DNA of 40,285 bases from the NCBI GenBank assembly GCA_002366995.1, contig DFCM01000137.1, positions 1 through 40,285 on the forward strand, written 5' to 3'. The stretch comes from a bacterium UBP3_UBA3054 (GTDB lineage: Bacteria; Auribacterota; UBA3054). The notes below the pieces were generated by a model. That model was given only the letters and a program-made list of their open reading frames with translations, was not told the origin of the DNA and searched no databases. Shown here piece after piece: positions 1 to 35,889 of this stretch; the stretch's first letter is position 1, and the number at the start of each line of letters is the position of its first letter. The translations under genes were made by a program, and so were the position numbers.

Positions 1-231
1 TATCGGCTCTTACTGGCATTTGATGAAGTCTACCATTCCGCAACGGAAGCGGAACAGAAAGAGTTTATGAAAGCCTTTATCGAGCGAATTGAAATGTTCC
101 CGGAGAAAAGGAAAGACGGAAGCTGGATAAAGAAGATCGTATTCAATTTCCCTGTGCCTGTTGATGGCGAGGAAGTGAAAGAACTTCCCTTGGAAACTGA
201 AACAACTGTCGACCTCGTGATTCTTGGGCCA
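1..231 (+). CDS. 3' fragment of a large serine recombinase gene (5' end outside the window, true 3' end uncertain); probable edge of an integrated mobile element
   Basis: Frame +1 from nt 1 reads YRLLLAFDEVYHSATEAEQKEFMKAFIERIEMFPEKRKDGSWIKKIVFNFPVPVDGEEVKELPLETETTVDLVIL. From memory this matches the conserved C-terminal tail of large serine recombinases (FIERIE..PE...I.F.FPV...ETVVLL). The stretch is AT-richer by eye than the rest of the window. There is no in-frame stop until 1122, so the end is placed where recognisable similarity stops. Confidence 0.5.
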
Positions 232-1385
232 TTGCGCTCCCTTCGTATCGCCTCTCAGGTCATTGTAGCAAAGGTATTCGGCCGGAAGCGTGTCGCCGCT
301 GTGGACGACAGGAAGATTTTTCCTTCCTGTGACATATTCGAACTGCTTCTGGGTGGTCTCGAAAACGCCGATATAATAAGGCTCGGTAATTGTGACGGAA
401 TGCTGCGTCTCGTCGGTGTCTCTGCCCAGCTCGCCAGAAGGAGAGCCCATCTGGAAATTGCCAGGCTCGATCCTTCTCATCCAAAGCTCCTTCGTGCGGC
501 AGTCGTCGCTGGAAAGATCTGGACCTACGGAAGAAGTTCGCACGCCGGAAGTCGTAAGATCGAAGACAAGATAATCGGCCGCGCTCGTGGCGTCCGTCGC
601 GCTGACTTTGATCTTAAGATTGTTGGATTTGAGAGTCAGGTTGGCAGCGGGAGTCCAAATAACTTTGTGCGTCCCAGCTTCGAAGAGCACGCCGTTGGCG
701 CCGTCTTTTTCCAATGTTCCGCGGTCGCTGAGCTTGAAGACCGTTTCGCCGTCGTCGAATGTGCCGTAGAAGTCGACAGTAAAGACCGGCATGACGCTTT
801 GGGTGTCGGAAGCGAGAGTGTAGTTGATCACGACGCTTCTCTTAAAAGGCCAGGCCTGCTGAGCGTTGACGGAGGTGACCGTAACGTCCGCGAAGGCGCC
901 CAAGGATGCGACCGTAAAAACGAGCAGCACAAGCGCGCCTTTTTTGCGAGCGATCAAAAGGCCGCCCAAAATGGCGAACAGCGCGAGGCAAGCGGGCTCG
1001 GGCAGGATCTTGACGCTGCGGGTCAGAACGACCGTCTCTTCAGAGGTCGTGATGGTTTCCTTAAGTTCATAAATGTCGCTCTTGGAAAAATCATCATACG
1101 TTGGATCTTCATAGTTCCATAAGACCGTGCCTTCCACCGCGGTCTTGGAATCGTCGGAGAAAAGCTCAGCGACCTTCGCGGAATCAACCGTGTCCGTAGC
1201 GGTAAGCTCGAGGGATCTGGGATCGCCGTCCGCCAGGGCGCTGCTGTAAAAGATCTTGTCCGCGGGAAGGAGCGTTATAGTGGAAGATGTGTCGCTTCCG
1301 TCAAACGCGACAGCGTCGGACCAAAGCTCATTTCCCAAAACAGACGCGCATAAAAGCGCGCAAAGTAAGAATAATAATTTTTCAT
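10..1385 (-). pseudogene. Degraded FGE/SUMF1-domain protein with an internal PEP-CTERM motif; paralog of 1644-3377; frameshifted at the start and truncated at the 3' end
   Basis: It is collinear with the 577-aa neighbour through ...IEPGNFQMGSPSGELGRDTDETQHSVTITEPYYIGVFETTQKQF...WPKNHEVD. Similarity then stops at about nt 208, and the roughly 170 aa C-terminal half of the FGE domain is missing. The ATG at 1383-1385 is out of frame with the signal peptide (KKHEKLLLFLLCALLCASVLG, in the ORF frame). One extra T in the T5 run at 1378-1382 would give MKKLLLFLLCALLCAS, like the paralog's MKKMLLFFAAALFC. Confidence 0.6.
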
Positions 1386-1643: not shown

Positions 1644-3377
1644 TTACTGGATTATTGCCAGACGGAAGCCTGTTCTCCTGCCGTGGAACAGCGGATTGCA
1701 GCGCACACGCTGGGCCGAACGGATATCACCGGCATCAAGGCCGCAGTTTCCGCTTTTTAGAATATTGTCTCCGGAATCCGCGCCGATTGGATCGATCTGG
1801 GGATCGGGGCCAAGATCATAGATATATTTGTCCAGGCAAAATTCCGCCACGTTGCCGTGCATGTCGTAAAGCCCCCAGTTGTTCACCTTGTAGCTGCCAA
1901 CGGTGGTGTGCTCGGTGTTGTAGTCGCCGTGCCCGTCGTTCCAGTCGTATTCATACCTTCCGACCTCGTTCGCCTCTGAGCATTGTATATAGCTGGATAT
2001 GTTTTTGCCGCTGTTCAAAGCCGTCGTCGTTCCCGCGCGGCAGGCGTACTCCCACTGAGCCTCGGTGGGGAGATCCAAAGGCAAGGCTATTTTAGAGCGC
2101 AGAATGCCCATGACAGAGGTCGGATCGACGTGCTTGTTCTTCGGGAAGGACAAGCCTTCGTCCGTCCCGCGGATCCGCTCGTAAGAAATTCTCTCGACAG
2201 GCCGTTCGTCGCCAACGAATTCCGAAGGATTGTCCCCGGTTATAAGCTGATACTGTTTCTGCGTCACTTCGAAAACGCCGATATAGAAACTCTTCGTCAA
2301 AGTGACCTGATGCTGCGTTTCGTGTTCCAGGCGTCCTTCCTCGTCCTCCGGACTGCCCATCATGAAAGTGCCGGGCTCTATAAGGCGCAGCACAAGCTTG
2401 GTGGTCTTGTACTGACTGGTCCATTCGTAAGGCGCTTCGGAAGCGGAAAGGAATTCCACCGGATAATTCGTCGCCTCGGGGCCCTCGGAAAGGTCTATGA
2501 CCATGTATCTGACGTCGTCCTTGTCCCTCTCGATGGCGTCGACCCTTATCCGGAAGGTGTCCGTGTTCACATTTTCCAGCCTGCTGTCGGTCGGTGTCCA
2601 GATAGCGGTGTGCTTGCCGATGCCGAAGACCTGGCCTTCCGTTCCCTCCGGGGCGTCTTGATAGAAGCCCAGGAACTCCGCGCCTTCGCCTTTAAGCTTT
2701 CCCTTAGACGACAGCCTGAAAACTTCCACTCCGTCCAGCGTTCCGTAAAAGCGCACGTCGTACAAAGCGGACCCTTTGGTGGAATCGCCTATCGTATAGT
2801 TTATGGTGACGCTTCTGTCAAAAGGCCAGTTCTGATGAATGCTGACAGACGTAACGTGATTGTTGTCGGCGTATGAGCTCATCGCGCCAAGCGCGGCGAC
2901 TGCCAAAACGACAACAACGCTTATAGTGCGGCGGCGCAGAAGCAGCGCGCCCGCGATGCCGATCAACAGAAAGCCGAAGGGCTCCGGCAGTATCGTCACG
3001 TAACGGCTGAGCGTTTTCGTTTCCACGTCGGTCGTTATCGTTTCCTTAAGAGCATAAGTTTCGTTCTTGGGAAGCGAGGCATATTCGGAATCGTAGTAAT
3101 CCCAGCACACCGCGCCTTCCGCTTCGTCGGAAGTCGTGTCGGAAAATATAAGACCGTACTGCTCCGGATCGGAAGCGACCTCCGCCTTTATCACAAGAGA
3201 CTTCATGTTGCCGCCAGCCAGAGCGCTGCAGTAATAAAGCTCGTCAGTATGCAAAAGCAGGATGGGCTCGTCCGTTATGGGAGCGCCGTTGAACGAGGCG
3301 TTGCTTGACCAGCAATCCTCGCAGAACGCCGCGCCGCAAAAGAGCGCGGCCGCAAAAAACAAAAGCATCTTTTTCAC
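1644..3377 (-). CDS. Exported FGE/SUMF1-domain (formylglycine-generating-enzyme fold) protein with an internal PEP-CTERM-like motif and a second signal-like helix
   Basis: 577-aa ORF with signal peptide MKKMLLFFAAALFCGAAFC. Internal ILPEPFGFLLIGIAGALLLRRR (aa 129-150) is followed by TISVVVVLAVAALGAMSSYA. Next comes a beta-rich module (QNWPFDRSVTINYT). The FGE-type domain has LIEPGTFMMGSP...HQVTLTKSFYIGVFEVTQKQY...LPTEAQWEYACRAGTTT...WGLYDMHGNVAEFC...GFRLA. Confidence 0.85.
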   Translation of the reverse strand: MKKMLLFFAAALFCGAAFCEDCWSSNASFNGAPITDEPILLLHTDELYYCSALAGGNMKSLVIKAEVASDPEQYGLIFSDTTSDEAEGAVCWDYYDSEYASLPKNETYALKETITTDVETKTLSRYVTILPEPFGFLLIGIAGALLLRRRTISVVVVLAVAALGAMSSYADNNHVTSVSIHQNWPFDRSVTINYTIGDSTKGSALYDVRFYGTLDGVEVFRLSSKGKLKGEGAEFLGFYQDAPEGTEGQVFGIGKHTAIWTPTDSRLENVNTDTFRIRVDAIERDKDDVRYMVIDLSEGPEATNYPVEFLSASEAPYEWTSQYKTTKLVLRLIEPGTFMMGSPEDEEGRLEHETQHQVTLTKSFYIGVFEVTQKQYQLITGDNPSEFVGDERPVERISYERIRGTDEGLSFPKNKHVDPTSVMGILRSKIALPLDLPTEAQWEYACRAGTTTALNSGKNISSYIQCSEANEVGRYEYDWNDGHGDYNTEHTTVGSYKVNNWGLYDMHGNVAEFCLDKYIYDLGPDPQIDPIGADSGDNILKSGNCGLDAGDIRSAQRVRCNPLFHGRRTGFRLAIIQ

Positions 3378-8599: not shown

Positions 8600-10300
8600 T
8601 TAGCGCCGCTTAATGGCGGCGAAGAGGCCGATGAGGGCCAGGATGCCGAGGAAAGCGGGCTCGGGCAGCGTGCCGGACTTGATCAGCTCGACCTTCAGGT
8701 TGTCGATGTAGTAGCCGTCGGAACCGGAGAAGGTGTAGTTGCGGAACTGCAGGAAGTTCTCGTTGTCGCCGGCGGCGCCGGGAACGTACTCGTTGTCAAA
8801 ATGGTAGGTCTCGCCGTCGAATTCAGCGTAGTGCAGAACAAAGGGGCGGGTCTCGTCGCTGGCAAGGCCGATGGTGAATGTGTAGGCCACGTTGAACCAC
8901 TGGCCGTAGGGGGCCAGATTGGGAACGTCGACGTTCTTGAAGGGTTCGCCGCCCAACTTGATGCCGCCTTCCGTGTGGCTCATGCTGACTTCGCCCATCC
9001 TGTGGCCGAGGTCGGTGCCGAAGACCAGGTACGGCGTGACACCTTCGGGATAGTACATATCCATGGAGACGCGGACGTCGTAGGTGGGATAGATAACGTC
9101 GGGCATGTTGACCGCGGTGTGGATTTGTCCGGCGCCCGTGATCTTCAGGCACTGGTTGTCGGGATCCTCGGGGTCGACCGCGATCGCATTGGCGGCGCCG
9201 GTCTCGCCCCAAGCGGGCTGGAGCTTGACATCGCCGCCCAGGGGCATTCTCTCGAAGTCGGTGGCGTAGAGCGCCCAGCCTAAGCCTTTGTTGCCGTTCT
9301 GAGCCACGACGGAATGCGTGAAGGATTTGTCTTCTTCGCCGTTATAATAGGAATAGGTGATGGTGGCCGCGGGCATGTTGCGGACTTGTTCGGGCAGATT
9401 GGCGGTAAGTCCGATGGAAACGGGTTCGCCGGGGGCGACTTCGACCTGCTTGGCGAATTCGCCGTCCATGGAGAGCCAGTTGTTGTCGGAATCGACCGTA
9501 ACGTCGACCGTGGCGCTGTTGCCGGTGGCGGAGATCACGGTTTCAAGGCCCAAAGTTTCGCCGAGCTTCACGACGCCAGGGGCTGTGGCGGTCACGTTGG
9601 CGGTGGGCGGAACGTCGACGAATTCGCATTTCAGATCATCGACGTAGAAGTGGCCCTGGCCGCCCCAAATGAAGAAGCGCAGACGACGGAATTTGTCGGG
9701 AGCCGTCTGGCTGCCGATGGGGATGTTCAGCCCGGTGTAGGTCTCGTCGCCGAAGGTGCATTCGCGGAGGAAGGCGCCGTTGGCGGTGGTGTTGATAGTG
9801 TAGCTGAAGTAGACCCATTCGTCGCGGGGCTCGGAATTGGCAACGGTGTACTGCGGAGAGCAGGCGGAGAAGCGGACGCCGAACTGACCGTCCTTCTTGA
9901 TGAAGTGGTTCTCGCCCAAGCCGTCGTTGCTGCCGAAGATGATGTCGCCGGTGTATTCGCCGGACTCGTCATACTTCTGCGTCGGGCGCTTGACCATCAT
10001 GGACACCTTGTAGTCGTACTTGGCCGACTGTCCGCCAGTGTTGTCGATGTTCCAGTGAATGCCGAACAGGCCGCTCGCGTTGACATGCAAACACTTGTCG
10101 CTGTCGTAGCCGCCTTCTTCGACGAGGGCGTTGCCGTCCGTGCCGGGGGTGCCGTAGGCGGTGGTCCAGCCGTTCTGGCCGATAACGTTCGTGCCGACCG
10201 CGTAGCCTTCGAAGTTATCTTCGACGATCGTGGTGGGGTCAGCCTGCGCCATGGCCGCGCAAAGCAGAAGCGCGGTGGTTAAAACTAGAGCTTTTTTCAT
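8600..10300 (-). CDS. Secreted PEP-CTERM-anchored protein with two lectin-like (ConA/LamG-like) modules
   Basis: Signal peptide MKKALVLTTALLLCAAMAQA and C-terminal TLPEPAFLGILALIGLFAAIKRR-stop, a classic PEP-CTERM. There is an internal duplication: EDNFEGYAVG...HFYVDDLKCEF and ATDFERMPLG...GYYIDNLKVEL. Confidence 0.85.
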   Translation of the reverse strand: MKKALVLTTALLLCAAMAQADPTTIVEDNFEGYAVGTNVIGQNGWTTAYGTPGTDGNALVEEGGYDSDKCLHVNASGLFGIHWNIDNTGGQSAKYDYKVSMMVKRPTQKYDESGEYTGDIIFGSNDGLGENHFIKKDGQFGVRFSACSPQYTVANSEPRDEWVYFSYTINTTANGAFLRECTFGDETYTGLNIPIGSQTAPDKFRRLRFFIWGGQGHFYVDDLKCEFVDVPPTANVTATAPGVVKLGETLGLETVISATGNSATVDVTVDSDNNWLSMDGEFAKQVEVAPGEPVSIGLTANLPEQVRNMPAATITYSYYNGEEDKSFTHSVVAQNGNKGLGWALYATDFERMPLGGDVKLQPAWGETGAANAIAVDPEDPDNQCLKITGAGQIHTAVNMPDVIYPTYDVRVSMDMYYPEGVTPYLVFGTDLGHRMGEVSMSHTEGGIKLGGEPFKNVDVPNLAPYGQWFNVAYTFTIGLASDETRPFVLHYAEFDGETYHFDNEYVPGAAGDNENFLQFRNYTFSGSDGYYIDNLKVELIKSGTLPEPAFLGILALIGLFAAIKRR

Positions 10301-32591: not shown

Positions 32592-33035
32592 ATTTTGCAA
32601 AAGGGTGCCGGCGCGCTTTCCGCACACGCTTTTCCGCTTCCGAAAAAGGGCGCTTTTTACGGCCCGGCCGGATGATCGGAAGTTTTTTTCACACCGTTAT
32701 TCACTTTTATATAACCATATTGTAATCAGAGTGTTATATTAAGCCAAGCCGCGCCTCTTGCTTTTCTCGCCCGGGTTTGCTACATTTTTCCCCGTATCAT
32801 TTACCAAAAAGTCTCCTGAACAGGTCTTCTTCGACAAGATATCAACATGCCGTTGTGACTTTTTCAGAAAAACCGTCTTTACAAACGGAGAGGATTATGG
32901 TAAAGTGGTGCCGTTCTTTTTTGCGAAAAGGTAGAAAAGAATGACTGGAAAGAGCGCTGTGCCCTTTTTGGTGTGTGTAAAGAAGCATTTATCGGGCTAA
33001 CCCCCGTGTAACAATATTTCGTGTAAGGTTTTTTC

Positions 33036-34403
33036 GTGAACGATTATCAGAGAATGTGGGAGAAAGTCCTGGAGCTGGTGAAGCATTCCACCGATCCAAT
33101 GGTCTTTTCGGCTTTCTTCTCTTCTGTTGAACCTGTGAGTTTTGCGGACGGCCTCTTTTCTATTCGTACCAACAACGCTTTGACCGCGGAGTACGTGAAG
33201 AAGAACCTGGGTTCCTTCATCGAGGATAATCTCTCGAAGGAAGCGGGATCTTCTGTCACTTTGAAAGTTATCGTCAACGGCGAACCGGAAGAAGAGAGCG
33301 TCACAAGTCCGGCTCCGGAAGAAAAAGAAAGCGGCAATAAAGTTCTGCGCGCCCAGGAGCCCCCGAAACTGAACCGCAATTACGTTTTCTCCAATTTCAT
33401 AATCGGTCCTTCGAACCAGTACGCTCACGCTGCCGCTTACGACGTGGCCAACAATCCCGGAACTTCCTACAATCCGCTCTTCATCTACGGCGGCTCGGGA
33501 CTTGGCAAAACACACCTTATGCACGCGATCGGCAACGCCATCTACGAAAGGGACAACAGCAAAAGGATCCTCTACATTACTTGCGAGAACTTCTGCTCCG
33601 ATTTCCAGGCTTCCCTTTCCTTCAAGAACAACGTGCATCAGTTCAGGGAAAAATACCGCTCCAACTACGACGTTATTCTGATCGACGATGTGCAGCATCT
33701 CTCTTTGGTGAACCGCACTCAGGACGAGTTCTTCCAGCTCTTCGAGTATCTCTTCGCCAACAACTGCCAGATCGTCATGACCTGCGACAAATCTCCCAGG
33801 GAACTGAAGAACATCAGCGACAGGCTCATCACCCGTTTCGAGTGGGGCGTGGTCGCCGACATTCAGCCGCCTGATTTTGAGACGCGCCAGGCCATCATCA
33901 AGAAAAAATGCCAGGACCGCGGTTTCAAGATCGACGACGACGTCTGCTCTTTCCTCGCCGGCAAGATCCAGAATCATGTCAGGGAGATCGAAGGCGTGCT
34001 CACAAGGTTGAGGATCTACGCTTCCGTCCAGAACCAGCCTATTTCCATCAAGCTGGCAAAGGAATGCATGAAGGAATACGTTTCCGACCAGAACATTTCC
34101 CTGGACGTCATCAAGCGCGCTGTTGCCGCTTATTTTGACATAAGTATTTCCGACCTCACTTCCCACAGAAGACCGAAAAACATCGCGAAACCGAGGCAAT
34201 TGGCCATGTTCCTCTGCCGTTCCATGACCAACAGCTCTTTGAACGAGATAGCGGCTTCTTTCGGCGGCAAAGATCATACGACTGTTCTTTATGCCTGCAA
34301 GAAGATAGAGGAAACGAAAAACAGTGACGACGAACTTAATTTCCAAATAGACGCGTTGAAAAAGTACATTATGAAAAATCGTCGGGAAGAATCCGACAGA
34401 TAA
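33036..34403 (+). CDS. dnaA: Chromosomal replication initiator DnaA
   Basis: GTG start. Motifs are NPLFIYGGSGLGKTHLMHAIGN (Walker A), VILIDDVQ (Walker B), the sensor region, and the C-terminal DNA-binding domain RRPKNIAKPRQLAMFLCR...IAASFGGKDHTTVLYACKKI. Confidence 0.95.
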   Translation: MNDYQRMWEKVLELVKHSTDPMVFSAFFSSVEPVSFADGLFSIRTNNALTAEYVKKNLGSFIEDNLSKEAGSSVTLKVIVNGEPEEESVTSPAPEEKESGNKVLRAQEPPKLNRNYVFSNFIIGPSNQYAHAAAYDVANNPGTSYNPLFIYGGSGLGKTHLMHAIGNAIYERDNSKRILYITCENFCSDFQASLSFKNNVHQFREKYRSNYDVILIDDVQHLSLVNRTQDEFFQLFEYLFANNCQIVMTCDKSPRELKNISDRLITRFEWGVVADIQPPDFETRQAIIKKKCQDRGFKIDDDVCSFLAGKIQNHVREIEGVLTRLRIYASVQNQPISIKLAKECMKEYVSDQNISLDVIKRAVAAYFDISISDLTSHRRPKNIAKPRQLAMFLCRSMTNSSLNEIAASFGGKDHTTVLYACKKIEETKNSDDELNFQIDALKKYIMKNRREESDR

Positions 34404-34408
34404 AAAAG

Positions 34409-34437
34409 AGACCCTGAAAAACAGGGTCTTTTTTTTT
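34409..34437 (+). terminator. Rho-independent terminator after dnaA
   Basis: AGACCCTG, loop AAAAA, CAGGGTCT, followed by T8. Confidence 0.8.
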
Positions 34438-34794
34438 GACAGTTTCTTCACATGTTTTCCAATAGTTAAGAATGTATCCAATAAAGTGTGAATATTTTGC
34501 GAATAAAAAACGCTAGTTATCCACCTGTTGAAAAGAGGCCTTTTTTCCACCTTTCTACTAACATCTTCTTCAAAGCTTAAAAATGTATATCATATTTAAA
34601 AAAGCTAATTTATATAAAATTTACTCCCAACTCACAACCCATAATGATAATAATTCTTTAATAGATCAATAAATGATTTTTAATAGTTGTTTGTGTATGA
34701 ACGAGTAGGAATATAATTACACACAAGAAAAAGAAAGGGGAAATATGGTAAAATAACTTACCTTGAAAATTAACCTCAATACAAATTCAATCTT
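34438..34794. other. oriC, right (dnaA-dnaN) part: DnaA boxes plus a strongly AT-rich candidate DNA-unwinding element
   Basis: TTATCCACC (34517-34525), TTTTCCACC (34543-34551) and ATATTCACA (minus strand, 34486-34494). They are followed by about 230 nt of very AT-rich sequence (34560-34790) before dnaN. Confidence 0.6.
34517..34525 (+). promoter_or_regulatory. DnaA box (TTATCCACC, 1 mismatch)
   Basis: Read directly. A second, weaker direct copy lies 26 nt downstream. Confidence 0.6.
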
Positions 34795-35889
34795 ATGAAA
34801 TTCACTTGCGCCATCTCCGACCTGCGCGACGCCGTGCAGCTTCTGCAGCCTGTCTGTTCAAACAAACCGGCTTTCCCCATAGTAGCCAATATTCTGATCC
34901 GCGCGAAGGATAATTCCGTCGAACTTACCGGCACAGATCTTGACATCACTATAAAGACTTCCATCGAAGCTTCCGTTGAAAGCGAAGGCGAGACCACCGT
35001 TCCCGTCCGCTATATGAGAGACACTTTGATGAAGATCAAAAGCGTTGCCCAGATCAGCGTGGAAGTTGACGAAAACAACGTTATCAAAATAACGGCCGGC
35101 GAAAGGATCAAATGTAACCTGAGAGGCGTGGCCGCCGCTGATTTCCCCTCTTTCCCCGTACTTTCCGAGTGCGAATCCGTTTCCATTCCCGCCAAGGAAT
35201 TCTCGAAGATGCTCCGCTACACCGGCTACGCTATGAGCCACGACGAACAGCGCTACATCTTGAACGGCATCTGCTTCTCTTTCGGCGAACAGCTTGACGT
35301 TGTGGCGACCGACGGCAGAAGACTTGCGAAATACACCGTTTCCGAGATCAAGACCGAAAAAGCGAGCCAGATCATCATTCCCGTGAAAGCCATCAACATG
35401 ATGCAGCAGCTTCTGGTGGGCGACGATCCTGTTTCCATGCGCTTCTCTTCTTCGCAGGTCGAGATCATCGTCGGACGCAACACGCTGGTCGCTCGTCTCA
35501 TGGACGGCCATTATCCCGATTACAAACAGGTCCTGCCGAAGAACAAGACTTTCTCCCTGACTTTGAATTCCGGCGATTTCTCCAACGCGGTCGAACTCGC
35601 CTCCGTCGTCACCGACAAGAACAAACAGGGCGTCGTCAAGCTGAGCCTGGCTTCCGGAAAAATGAAAGTTTCCGCCCAGACGGCCGACATCGGTGAAAAC
35701 AGTTCCGAACTGGAGACCGAATACGCCGGCGAGCCGATGGACATTTCCTTCAACCCGACTTTCCTCCTCGACGTGTTCAGGAACATCGACGAGACGGAAG
35801 TGACGATGGACGTCATAAACCCCATCAGCCCGACCGTCATAAGAACTACGGACAACTTCATCAGCATCATCATGCCGATGCGCTTCTAG
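34795..35889 (+). CDS. dnaN: DNA polymerase III beta sliding clamp
   Basis: 364 aa with MKF.C....L...V......C.....P.L.NIL..A....VELTGTDLDI and a C-terminal PMRF-stop. The three-domain length is typical of DnaN, and the gene is adjacent to dnaA. Confidence 0.93.
   Translation: MKFTCAISDLRDAVQLLQPVCSNKPAFPIVANILIRAKDNSVELTGTDLDITIKTSIEASVESEGETTVPVRYMRDTLMKIKSVAQISVEVDENNVIKITAGERIKCNLRGVAAADFPSFPVLSECESVSIPAKEFSKMLRYTGYAMSHDEQRYILNGICFSFGEQLDVVATDGRRLAKYTVSEIKTEKASQIIIPVKAINMMQQLLVGDDPVSMRFSSSQVEIIVGRNTLVARLMDGHYPDYKQVLPKNKTFSLTLNSGDFSNAVELASVVTDKNKQGVVKLSLASGKMKVSAQTADIGENSSELETEYAGEPMDISFNPTFLLDVFRNIDETEVTMDVINPISPTVIRTTDNFISIIMPMRF

Follow-up and report, generated by a model that had tools for sequence, protein, structure and literature searches.

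An apparent operon fusion places a PEP-CTERM sorting tag in the interior of FGE-domain proteins from rumen bacteria

Introduction

PEP-CTERM sorting tags are defined, modelled, and annotated as C-terminal features; known examples are followed by a median of three extra residues, and 87% by fewer than ten (Haft et al., 2006, PMC1569441). What, then, is such a tag doing in the middle of a protein? The question arises from a 40,285-nucleotide stretch of DNA (contig DFCM01000137.1 of assembly GCA_002366995.1, from the bacterium UBP3_UBA3054), hereafter the window, in which one open reading frame (ORF) encodes a 577-residue protein with a formylglycine-generating enzyme (FGE)-type domain. Well inside this protein, a PEP motif, a hydrophobic helix, and a basic cluster lead directly into a second, signal-peptide-like helix. 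An entire family of related proteins holds the tag internally in this way, under clear purifying selection. An operon-fusion origin combined with processing into two products, by an exosortase and by signal peptidase I, is the account that we regard as reasonably probable, the processing part being read from sequence features. The evolutionary reconstruction appears solid, and the processing model plausible.

Results

Architecture of the fused gene

The coding sequence has no internal stop codon and specifies, in order, a signal peptide, an N-terminal domain (N-domain), a PEP-CTERM-like tail, a signal-peptide-like helix, a beta-sandwich module (beta-module), and an FGE-fold domain (Table 1). 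The original prediction, made from the letters of the window, had placed a PEP-CTERM motif inside this ORF with a second helix in frame behind it; the ORF is indeed uninterrupted, and the range given for the two elements (2868-2990) is right to within one codon. Residues P131-E132-P133 correspond to nucleotides (nt) 2979-2987, and the hydrophobic helix FGFLLIGIAGALLL then runs into RRR, as the helix and basic cluster of a PEP-CTERM tag should. The tail is not at the extreme C-terminus, with 427 residues following the RRR.

The second helix was assigned from sequence criteria: a positive n-region, an h-region of 7-15 residues, and small residues at -3 and -1. By these criteria it resembles a Sec signal peptide cleaved by signal peptidase I, with RRR as n-region, then ISVVVVLAVAALGA, and a predicted site at SYA/D; it begins at residue 151, however, and not at an N-terminal position. 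The prospective N-terminus of the mature C-terminal half (C-half), at D171, reads DNNHVTSVSIHQNWPFDR.

AlphaFold2 predicts three confident domains, namely beta-sandwiches at residues 21-127 and 174-282 and an FGE fold at 326-576; between them, residues 134-170 reach a predicted local distance difference test score (pLDDT) of only 27-48. The N-terminal signal peptide is modelled as one helix (residues 2-17, low confidence), and its K/R start and hydrophobic core are kept throughout the alignment, followed by invariant W23 and S24. The N-domain has no family match in Pfam or NCBIfam, and Foldseek returns only generic beta-sandwiches of the immunoglobulin, fibronectin type III, or lytic polysaccharide monooxygenase kind for it, at E >0.002. 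Within the beta-module, Q181, P184, and V189 are invariant. A hidden Markov model (HMM) scan for the FGE-sulfatase family, proposed with the original prediction, located PF03781 at residues 332-574 (E 1.2e-29).

The DNA of the fused gene is 100% identical in two assemblies of different sequencing runs (L001, bovine gut, SRR094428; L002, SRR5324798), which speaks against a sequencing frameshift. Separate translation of the C-half was considered and rejected: residues 139-157 contain no ATG, GTG, or TTG codon, and starts at 158 and 166 lack an n-region and a Shine-Dalgarno sequence. With no usable in-frame start ahead of the second helix, the C-half must be exported as part of the fusion.

Unfused relatives and the origin of the fusion

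The two halves are encoded by separate genes in five independent metagenome loci (L086/L087, L089/L090, L091, L092/L093, and L094). The upstream gene of these split loci encodes a signal peptide, the N-domain, and PEP + helix + RK followed by a stop codon (one example ends ...LMPEPGVALGLLTLSLLFIRKK-stop). After a further 22-53 nt, a co-oriented downstream gene opens with a signal peptide, e.g., MKLFVLTLLLAIGALA/DTVSNIKFAQRWPWNGKVDIDYTL..., and continues through the beta-module (RWPWNG/WPF motif) into an FGE domain wherever the contig or its Pfam annotation extends that far. A stand-alone C-half is also found, the 704-residue P0059, which starts MLRVAAVFLSAICIFSAYA/ENVVTDVSCLQMWPFDRSV... and has its signal peptide in the register of the second helix. 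Counted by hand, the distance from the Ala at -1 to the W of WPF/WPW is 13-14 residues in the fused proteins, in the closely examined split loci, and in P0059. Because relatives carry both halves as separate adjacent genes, these comparative data indicate that the window protein is the in-frame fusion of a two-gene operon. The original prediction of a small PEP-CTERM protein joined to a secreted FGE-domain protein thus finds its two components side by side in other genomes.

When 1.84 billion cluster representatives were scanned with an N-terminal profile by HMMER, without a word index, 73 matches came back. About 19 of these end in PEP + helix + R/K, at lengths of 149-173 residues with one N-domain or 272-518 residues with tandem N-domains, and about 22 are fused forms. 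The internal tail thus descends from bona fide C-terminal PEP-CTERM tails, represented by these ~19 proteins and by the five split loci. The same 150-residue profile found one protein in a word-indexed homolog search, as against 73 by the index-free method; negatives from word-indexed searches appear unreliable for short, hydrophobic-rich queries, presumably owing to a limit of the word index.

In a crude neighbor-joining tree of the N-domain, the stand-alone forms make up one clade, within which two fused proteins (P0163 and P0174) are nested. Both share with the split loci a module of the RWPWNGKVDI type, and in P0163 a Met still stands straight after the RK. This placement suggests that the fusion arose at least twice, P0163 and P0174 representing a second independent event. 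A 154-residue stand-alone form within the fused clade (P0129), located on a 704-nt contig, may be a fission or an error.

Two further observations concern the surroundings of these genes. In L092/L093 (7757-12465), two large genes for subtilisin-like peptidases (Peptidase_S8) lie behind the PEP-CTERM/FGE gene pair, and a toxin-antitoxin-like pair (AbiEii/DUF6088) lies ahead of it. In L003 (6663-12583) and L004 (10001-20732), fused-type genes and other FGE-domain paralogs together form tandem arrays. Some of the other paralogs lack any signal peptide or N-domain (starting MIDINKTTAKYLVLDL...), and short FGE fragments are present; this suggests rapid duplication and decay within these arrays.

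Conservation of the junction

With the full protein as query, thousands of FGE-domain proteins were retrieved, and the junction layout was assessed in the best 120. PEP, helix, basic cluster, second helix, and a ...Q-x-W-P-F-D-R-S-V... module recur at about residue 131 in 54 of these 120, and the identity of these junction-bearing matches to the query is as low as 38%; a 55th (P0011) has the same layout with PES in place of PEP. Fused proteins fall into a form of ~550-580 residues with one FGE domain and a form of ~830-980 residues with two. Pooling all matches yielded 62 distinct junction sequences, with identity as low as ~34%.

Among the 62 junctions, the first P and the E of PEP are present in all 62 and the second P in 61, P0011 being the exception. 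The concern raised alongside the original prediction, that PEP might not be conserved in homologs, was thus answered the other way, with PEP complete in 61 of 62. The residue at -1 of the mature C-half is Ala in 59/62, the -3 position is A, T, V, or S in 58/62, and the +1 position is D, E, or N in 53/62; helix positions between these conserved sites vary freely. In an N-terminal alignment of 18 diverse sequences, 12 of ~150 columns are invariant, P131, E132, and P133 among them. The PEP codons of 10 genomic copies differ synonymously (CCG/CCC, GAG/GAA, and CCC/CCT/CCG/CCA), which indicates that the PEP residues are kept by purifying selection and are not merely young.

The sole fused homolog with PES, P0011 (873 residues, NCBI), has an unusual first helix, VSLFTMVCIGMFIL, and keeps VNA/D past the second helix. 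This copy may no longer undergo exosortase processing.

Stable transmembrane (TM) anchors typically comprise ~20 residues or more. From PEP to the first basic residue, the first helix measures 14.2 residues on average (range 12-16), the basic loop that follows has 3-6 residues rich in R/K, and the h- and c-regions of the second helix average 17.7 residues (range 15-20). Both helices therefore keep signal-like lengths and are not lengthened toward the size of a permanent anchor. At a threshold of E <= 0.017 (~16 bits), the PEP-CTERM model TIGR02595 matches internal tails of the family (36 of 59) as often as it matches tails at a true C-terminus in the unfused relatives (10 of 19). When homologs of at least 90% identity are compared, no 30-residue block of the protein varies more than that with the second helix (13 variable columns), whereas the block from PEP to RRR has 3 variable columns; a signal-peptide core, in which only composition is under constraint, should show such variability. 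Together, these features speak for both signals still being in use.

Discussion

Proposed processing and its alternatives

As the comparative data show, the ancestral operon consisted of a first gene for a small exported beta-sandwich protein with a C-terminal PEP-CTERM exosortase tag and a second for a Sec-exported protein in which a beta-module precedes a domain of the FGE fold, which is C-type-lectin-like. Once the stop codon and a spacer of ~25-50 nt had been lost, the PEP-CTERM tail directly adjoined the signal peptide of the second gene. In the fused precursor, the N-terminal signal peptide would initiate export of the N-domain, the 14-residue PEP-CTERM helix would halt transfer with RRR left in the cytoplasm, and the second short helix would restart translocation with its N-terminus in and its C-terminus out, so that the helix pair inserts as a hairpin. 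Signal peptidase I would then cleave after SYA(170) and release the beta-module and FGE-fold half into the periplasm, while the exosortase would cleave at or near PEP and hand on the N-domain like any PEP-CTERM protein. A leftover hairpin of ~40 residues would be discarded, and the outcome would be the same two mature products as those of the unfused operon, at a fixed 1:1 ratio.

The conservation of PEP and A-x-A, together with the short, signal-like length of the two helices, leads us to favor two products over an uncleaved hairpin. The stronger statement, that the protein is a true secretory polyprotein from which an exosortase acting at the internal PEP and signal peptidase I together excise the hairpin to release two exported proteins, is one to which we would give even chances.

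A permanent helical hairpin is the first alternative to be weighed: neither site would be cut, and the short helices would hold the N-domain and the FGE-fold half at the periplasmic face of the inner membrane. The succession of signal peptide, helix, three to six basic residues, and helix does give a topology with both ends outside, tethering two partner proteins could itself be selected, and atypically placed PEP-CTERM motifs have been judged likely non-functional (Haft et al., 2006, PMC1569441). However, a plain anchor needs no invariant PEP, no Ala at -1, and no small residue at -3 across sequences that are ~34-50% identical, and it leaves the synonymous-only change at the PEP codons unexplained; nor are the two helices, of signal-like length (~14 residues), longer than in the unfused genes. 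We consider a permanent hairpin unlikely.

Somewhat less probable still is half-processing, in which signal peptidase I frees the C-half but the exosortase cannot use an internal tag, so that the N-domain stays membrane-bound, or in which only the exosortase acts. Signal peptidase I requires just a periplasm-facing A-x-A behind a short helix, which is present here, and after its cut the tag would lie only ~20 residues from the new C-terminus; the two steps could thus be ordered rather than exclusive. The invariant PEP would nevertheless be unexplained if an exosortase never acted, and the remnant cut at A170 would resemble a PEP-CTERM protein with a longer tail, likely still a substrate.

That two ordinary genes were misjoined by a sequencing or assembly error, or that the C-half arises from an internal start codon, is very improbable: a frameshift of 1 nt, whether real or apparent, does lie close to the start of a paralog in the window, and indels do occur in the region, but the ORF is identical in two independent assemblies, the in-frame junction recurs in 62 distinct sequences from many samples with genome copies that differ at the DNA level, and the stretch at residues 139-157 holds no start codon, the later candidates at 158 and 166 giving neither n-region nor Shine-Dalgarno sequence. 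An artefact is effectively refuted by this evidence, as the original prediction had maintained.

Several points weigh against processing of the fusion into two products. Each processing step is deduced from sequence alone; acceptance by an exosortase of a tag with 427 further residues is an assumption of the model; and PEP and A-x-A might, in principle, be conserved for the packing of the hairpin or for a role at the membrane interface instead of for cleavage. P0011, with its PES, looks intact all the same. The tail of the window protein itself scores 9.8 bits on TIGR02595, under the cut-off of 16, and has no Pfam tail match; this weak single-sequence score means that its membership among PEP-CTERM tags rests on comparison at the level of the family. 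Haft et al. (2006, PMC1569441) found "very few" long-tailed PEP-CTERM hits and thought them probably non-functional, as they were more variable. Judged by its alignments, the fused family is the opposite case, its internal tags being as well conserved as terminal ones.

Also on the opposing side, no exosortase gene was found in the window (Pfam on 20 ORFs), in its flanks (on the left L001, a mobile element; on the right L095-L097), or in a screen for multi-TM ORFs across ~1.2 Mb of related loci, which is a small part of any genome. This screen required first a C[ST]G motif, which gave 2 candidates, and then size alone, which gave 35 ORFs; 12 of the 35 were scanned with Pfam and 3 of these also with NCBIfam, the rest being judged too long and too transporter-like for an exosortase. 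Indirect support for an exosortase comes from canonical C-terminal PEP-CTERM proteins, which are present in the window and in two contigs of metagenome-assembled genomes (MAGs), L009 and L012, both of which hold full-length fused genes. PEP-CTERM proteins correlate perfectly with EpsH/exosortase genes in profiled genomes, including Verrucomicrobium (Haft et al., 2006, PMC1569441), and A. muciniphila, of the Planctomycetes-Verrucomicrobia-Chlamydiae (PVC) group, has an EpsH-like gene with 23 PEP-CTERM proteins (PMC4960237).

Comparison with known systems

With the PEP-CTERM/exosortase system (TIGR02595, PF07589; PMC1569441) the window tag shares the PEP, a helix of ~14 residues, a basic cluster, and a carrier with an N-terminal signal peptide; the host is a diderm, a canonical example lies 5 kb away, and homologous N-domains carry the tag at the terminus in relatives. 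It differs in that a signal-peptide-like helix follows at once, with 427 residues in all, and in that its score is under the cut-off. The most fitting description of it, on these comparisons, is that of a PEP-CTERM tag which a gene fusion has moved to the interior. The unfused operons (e.g., P0157 and the FGE gene in L086; P0169 and its neighbor in L092) have the same N-domain, tag, beta-module, and FGE fold in the same order and orientation; they differ in their stop codon and their 22-53 nt spacer with a ribosome-binding region, and in having both signals at textbook terminal positions. These relatives are a built-in control for the products to be expected.

Processing of one ORF into two proteins has its closest functional analogues in viral envelope polyproteins and in FbcH of Bradyrhizobium japonicum, the cytochrome b/c1 precursor, in which an internal signal-peptide-like segment is reportedly cleaved to give two proteins (Thony-Meyer et al.). 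As proposed here, translocation restarts at an internal signal peptide, whose cleavage yields two mature proteins; unlike the window protein, FbcH has no C-terminal-type sorting tag before the internal signal, and its upstream product is a polytopic membrane protein. Flavivirus and alphavirus envelope polyproteins alternate stop-transfer and internal signal sequences that are cut by host signal peptidase. They share the order of stop-transfer helix, short cytoplasmic loop, and signal helix, with two ectodomains per chain, but belong to the eukaryotic endoplasmic reticulum, are unrelated in sequence, and involve no sortase-type transpeptidase. Literature searches for internal PEP-CTERM tags, for PEP-CTERM tags with FGE domains, for exosortases in Lentisphaerae or Victivallales, and for internal signal peptides in bacteria turned up no account of such an architecture.

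Annotation pipelines name such proteins only "formylglycine-generating enzyme family protein" and so overlook the architecture. The gene pair and its fusion constitute Rosetta-stone evidence that a beta-sandwich PEP-CTERM protein and an FGE-fold protein cooperate at the cell envelope of Lentisphaeria-like bacteria from rumen and gut. If the proposed processing is true, exosortase recognition would not require a C-terminal position of the tag, and a sorting tag and a signal peptide could jointly serve as a linker that removes itself; the fusion, which dozens of paralogs retain, may then be favored for 1:1 delivery of a surface-anchored partner and a lectin-like protein at one membrane site. The family offers a natural, testable substrate for exosortase recognition, for a Sec signal as an internal restart, and for production of two exported proteins by hairpin excision.

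The FGE-fold domain

By structure and by sequence, the FGE-fold domain comes closest to TvpA (2y3c), PvdO, human FGE, and PorK, with Foldseek E values for FGE, PvdO, and TvpA of 1e-12 to 1e-15. All NCBIfam equivalog scores of the window protein are far under their cut-offs. The alignment to human FGE, which is partial, stops at the position of the first catalytic Cys (Cys336), which appears to be D in the window protein, and its extension by hand places I or R at the position of Cys341 (GLDAGDIRSAQR). The apparent lack of Cys at catalytic positions, together with the low equivalog scores, suggests binding as a more likely role for the domain than formylglycine generation. In this it would resemble TvpA of Treponema denticola (2y3c), PvdO (5hha), and PorK/GldK, which have the FGE fold without FGE chemistry and are exported or periplasmic. 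FGE-fold proteins form large paralog families in PVC-group bacteria, and the fused family likewise occurs in tandem paralog arrays. In contrast to TvpA and PorK/GldK, the window has no template repeat of a diversity-generating retroelement and no type IX secretion context.

A diversity-generating retroelement, an idea taken from TvpA, a variable protein of such an element and the best PDB match in both sequence and fold, was dropped, as the window contains no template/variable repeat pair. Inverted repeats of at least 40 nt are likewise absent from the window; reverse transcriptase was not looked for. The C-terminal ~45 residues of the FGE fold are encoded at 1656-1790, and residues 541-570 show fair variability when homologs of at least 90% identity are compared (8 of 30 columns).

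Other PEP-CTERM sites and features of the window

A motif census by regular expression over all six-frame ORFs of at least 60 residues found PEP + hydrophobic run + basic cluster at three sites only in the 40-kb window: the fused gene, an adjacent paralog, and a canonical PEP-CTERM gene (Table 1). With matches confined to these three sites, chance explains the internal motif poorly. The isolated tails of the three score 9.8 (fused gene), 19.6 (paralog), and 15.2 bits (canonical gene) on TIGR02595, against the cut-off of 16.

Table 1. Positions of the fused gene, its parts, and the other PEP-CTERM sites in the window.
Feature	Position (nt)	Strand	Remarks
Fused gene	1644..3377	-	Complete; >60 full-length homologs
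N-terminal signal peptide, residues 1-19 (MKKMLLFFAAALFCGAAFC/EDC)	3321..3377	-	Read from sequence
N-domain, residues 20-128, ~108-residue beta-sandwich	2994..3320	-	pLDDT 80-92
Internal PEP-CTERM-like tail ILPEPFGFLLIGIAGALLLRRR, residues 129-150 (ILPEP + 14 hydrophobic residues + RRR)	2928..2993	-	Sequence, family conservation
Putative second signal helix TISVVVVLAVAALGAMSSYA, residues 151-170, then DNNH	2868..2927	-	Signal-peptide register in unfused relatives
Beta-sandwich module, residues 171-285, start of the predicted mature C-half (VTSVSIHQNWPFDRSVTINYT...)	2523..2867	-	Strands 174-282, pLDDT ~78-90
FGE-sulfatase-fold (C-type-lectin-like) domain, residues 332-574	1656..2384	-	Pfam PF03781, 104.1 bits, E 1.2e-29
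Canonical PEP-CTERM protein of the same organism	8600..10300	-	Tail nt 8603-8665, ends ...IKRR-stop
Paralog with internal junction as in the 577-residue protein	10..1385 (ORF 10..1338)	-	PEP...KK nt 940-1002; second helix ~nt 889-939

The canonical gene ends TLPEPAFLGILALIGLFAAIKRR-stop, as the original prediction had it. Its tail scores 11.3-17.7 bits on PF07589 (17.7 when isolated), against a cut-off of 20.7, and thus falls under the curated cut-offs of both PF07589 and TIGR02595. PEP-CTERM proteins of this lineage would probably go unrecognized in standard annotation.

The paralog had been described as an intact copy with the same junction arrangement. The arrangement stands, its junction reading KILPEPACLALFAILGGLLIARKK-GALVLLVFTVASLGAFA/DVTV, but the gene is disrupted at both ends: after the ATG at 1385, one T is deleted past codon 3 (MKN|LLFLLCALL... 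in the other frame), and homology to intact 844-residue relatives (P0057) ends at about nt 169. In a tblastn comparison, P0057 residues 15-405 align to window positions 1344-169 at 88% identity. A left extension of the window (L001, 3052-5553) contains a mobile element that encodes a large serine recombinase, a relaxase of the Mob_Pre type, and a primase-like protein; the 833-residue recombinase ORF appears to continue for ~318 codons antisense through the paralog (window ORF 67..1122, +).

The host habitat is the ruminant gut, and the organism is a rumen bacterium. Its closest relatives at the genome level are "Bacterium RGIG..." MAGs, followed by MAGs of Victivallales, Lentisphaerae, and Kiritimatiellae. 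Full-length fused genes occur, e.g., in the MAGs RGIG7520 (JAFYXV01), RGIG7086, and RGIG9704, and the gene order of the window around its ATP-sulfurylase gene recurs in assemblies GCA_978016355.1 and GCA_016295295.1. The presence of LpxK and MlaA in the window indicates that the organism is a diderm. Additionally, dnaA and dnaN lie at 33036-34403 (+) and 34795-35889 (+), related contigs have DciA further downstream, and G+C content falls to 0.46-0.49 across 32-36 kb; the origin of chromosomal replication probably lies within the window. A longer antisense ORF at 32997..34550 (-) has no Pfam match and is probably not a gene.

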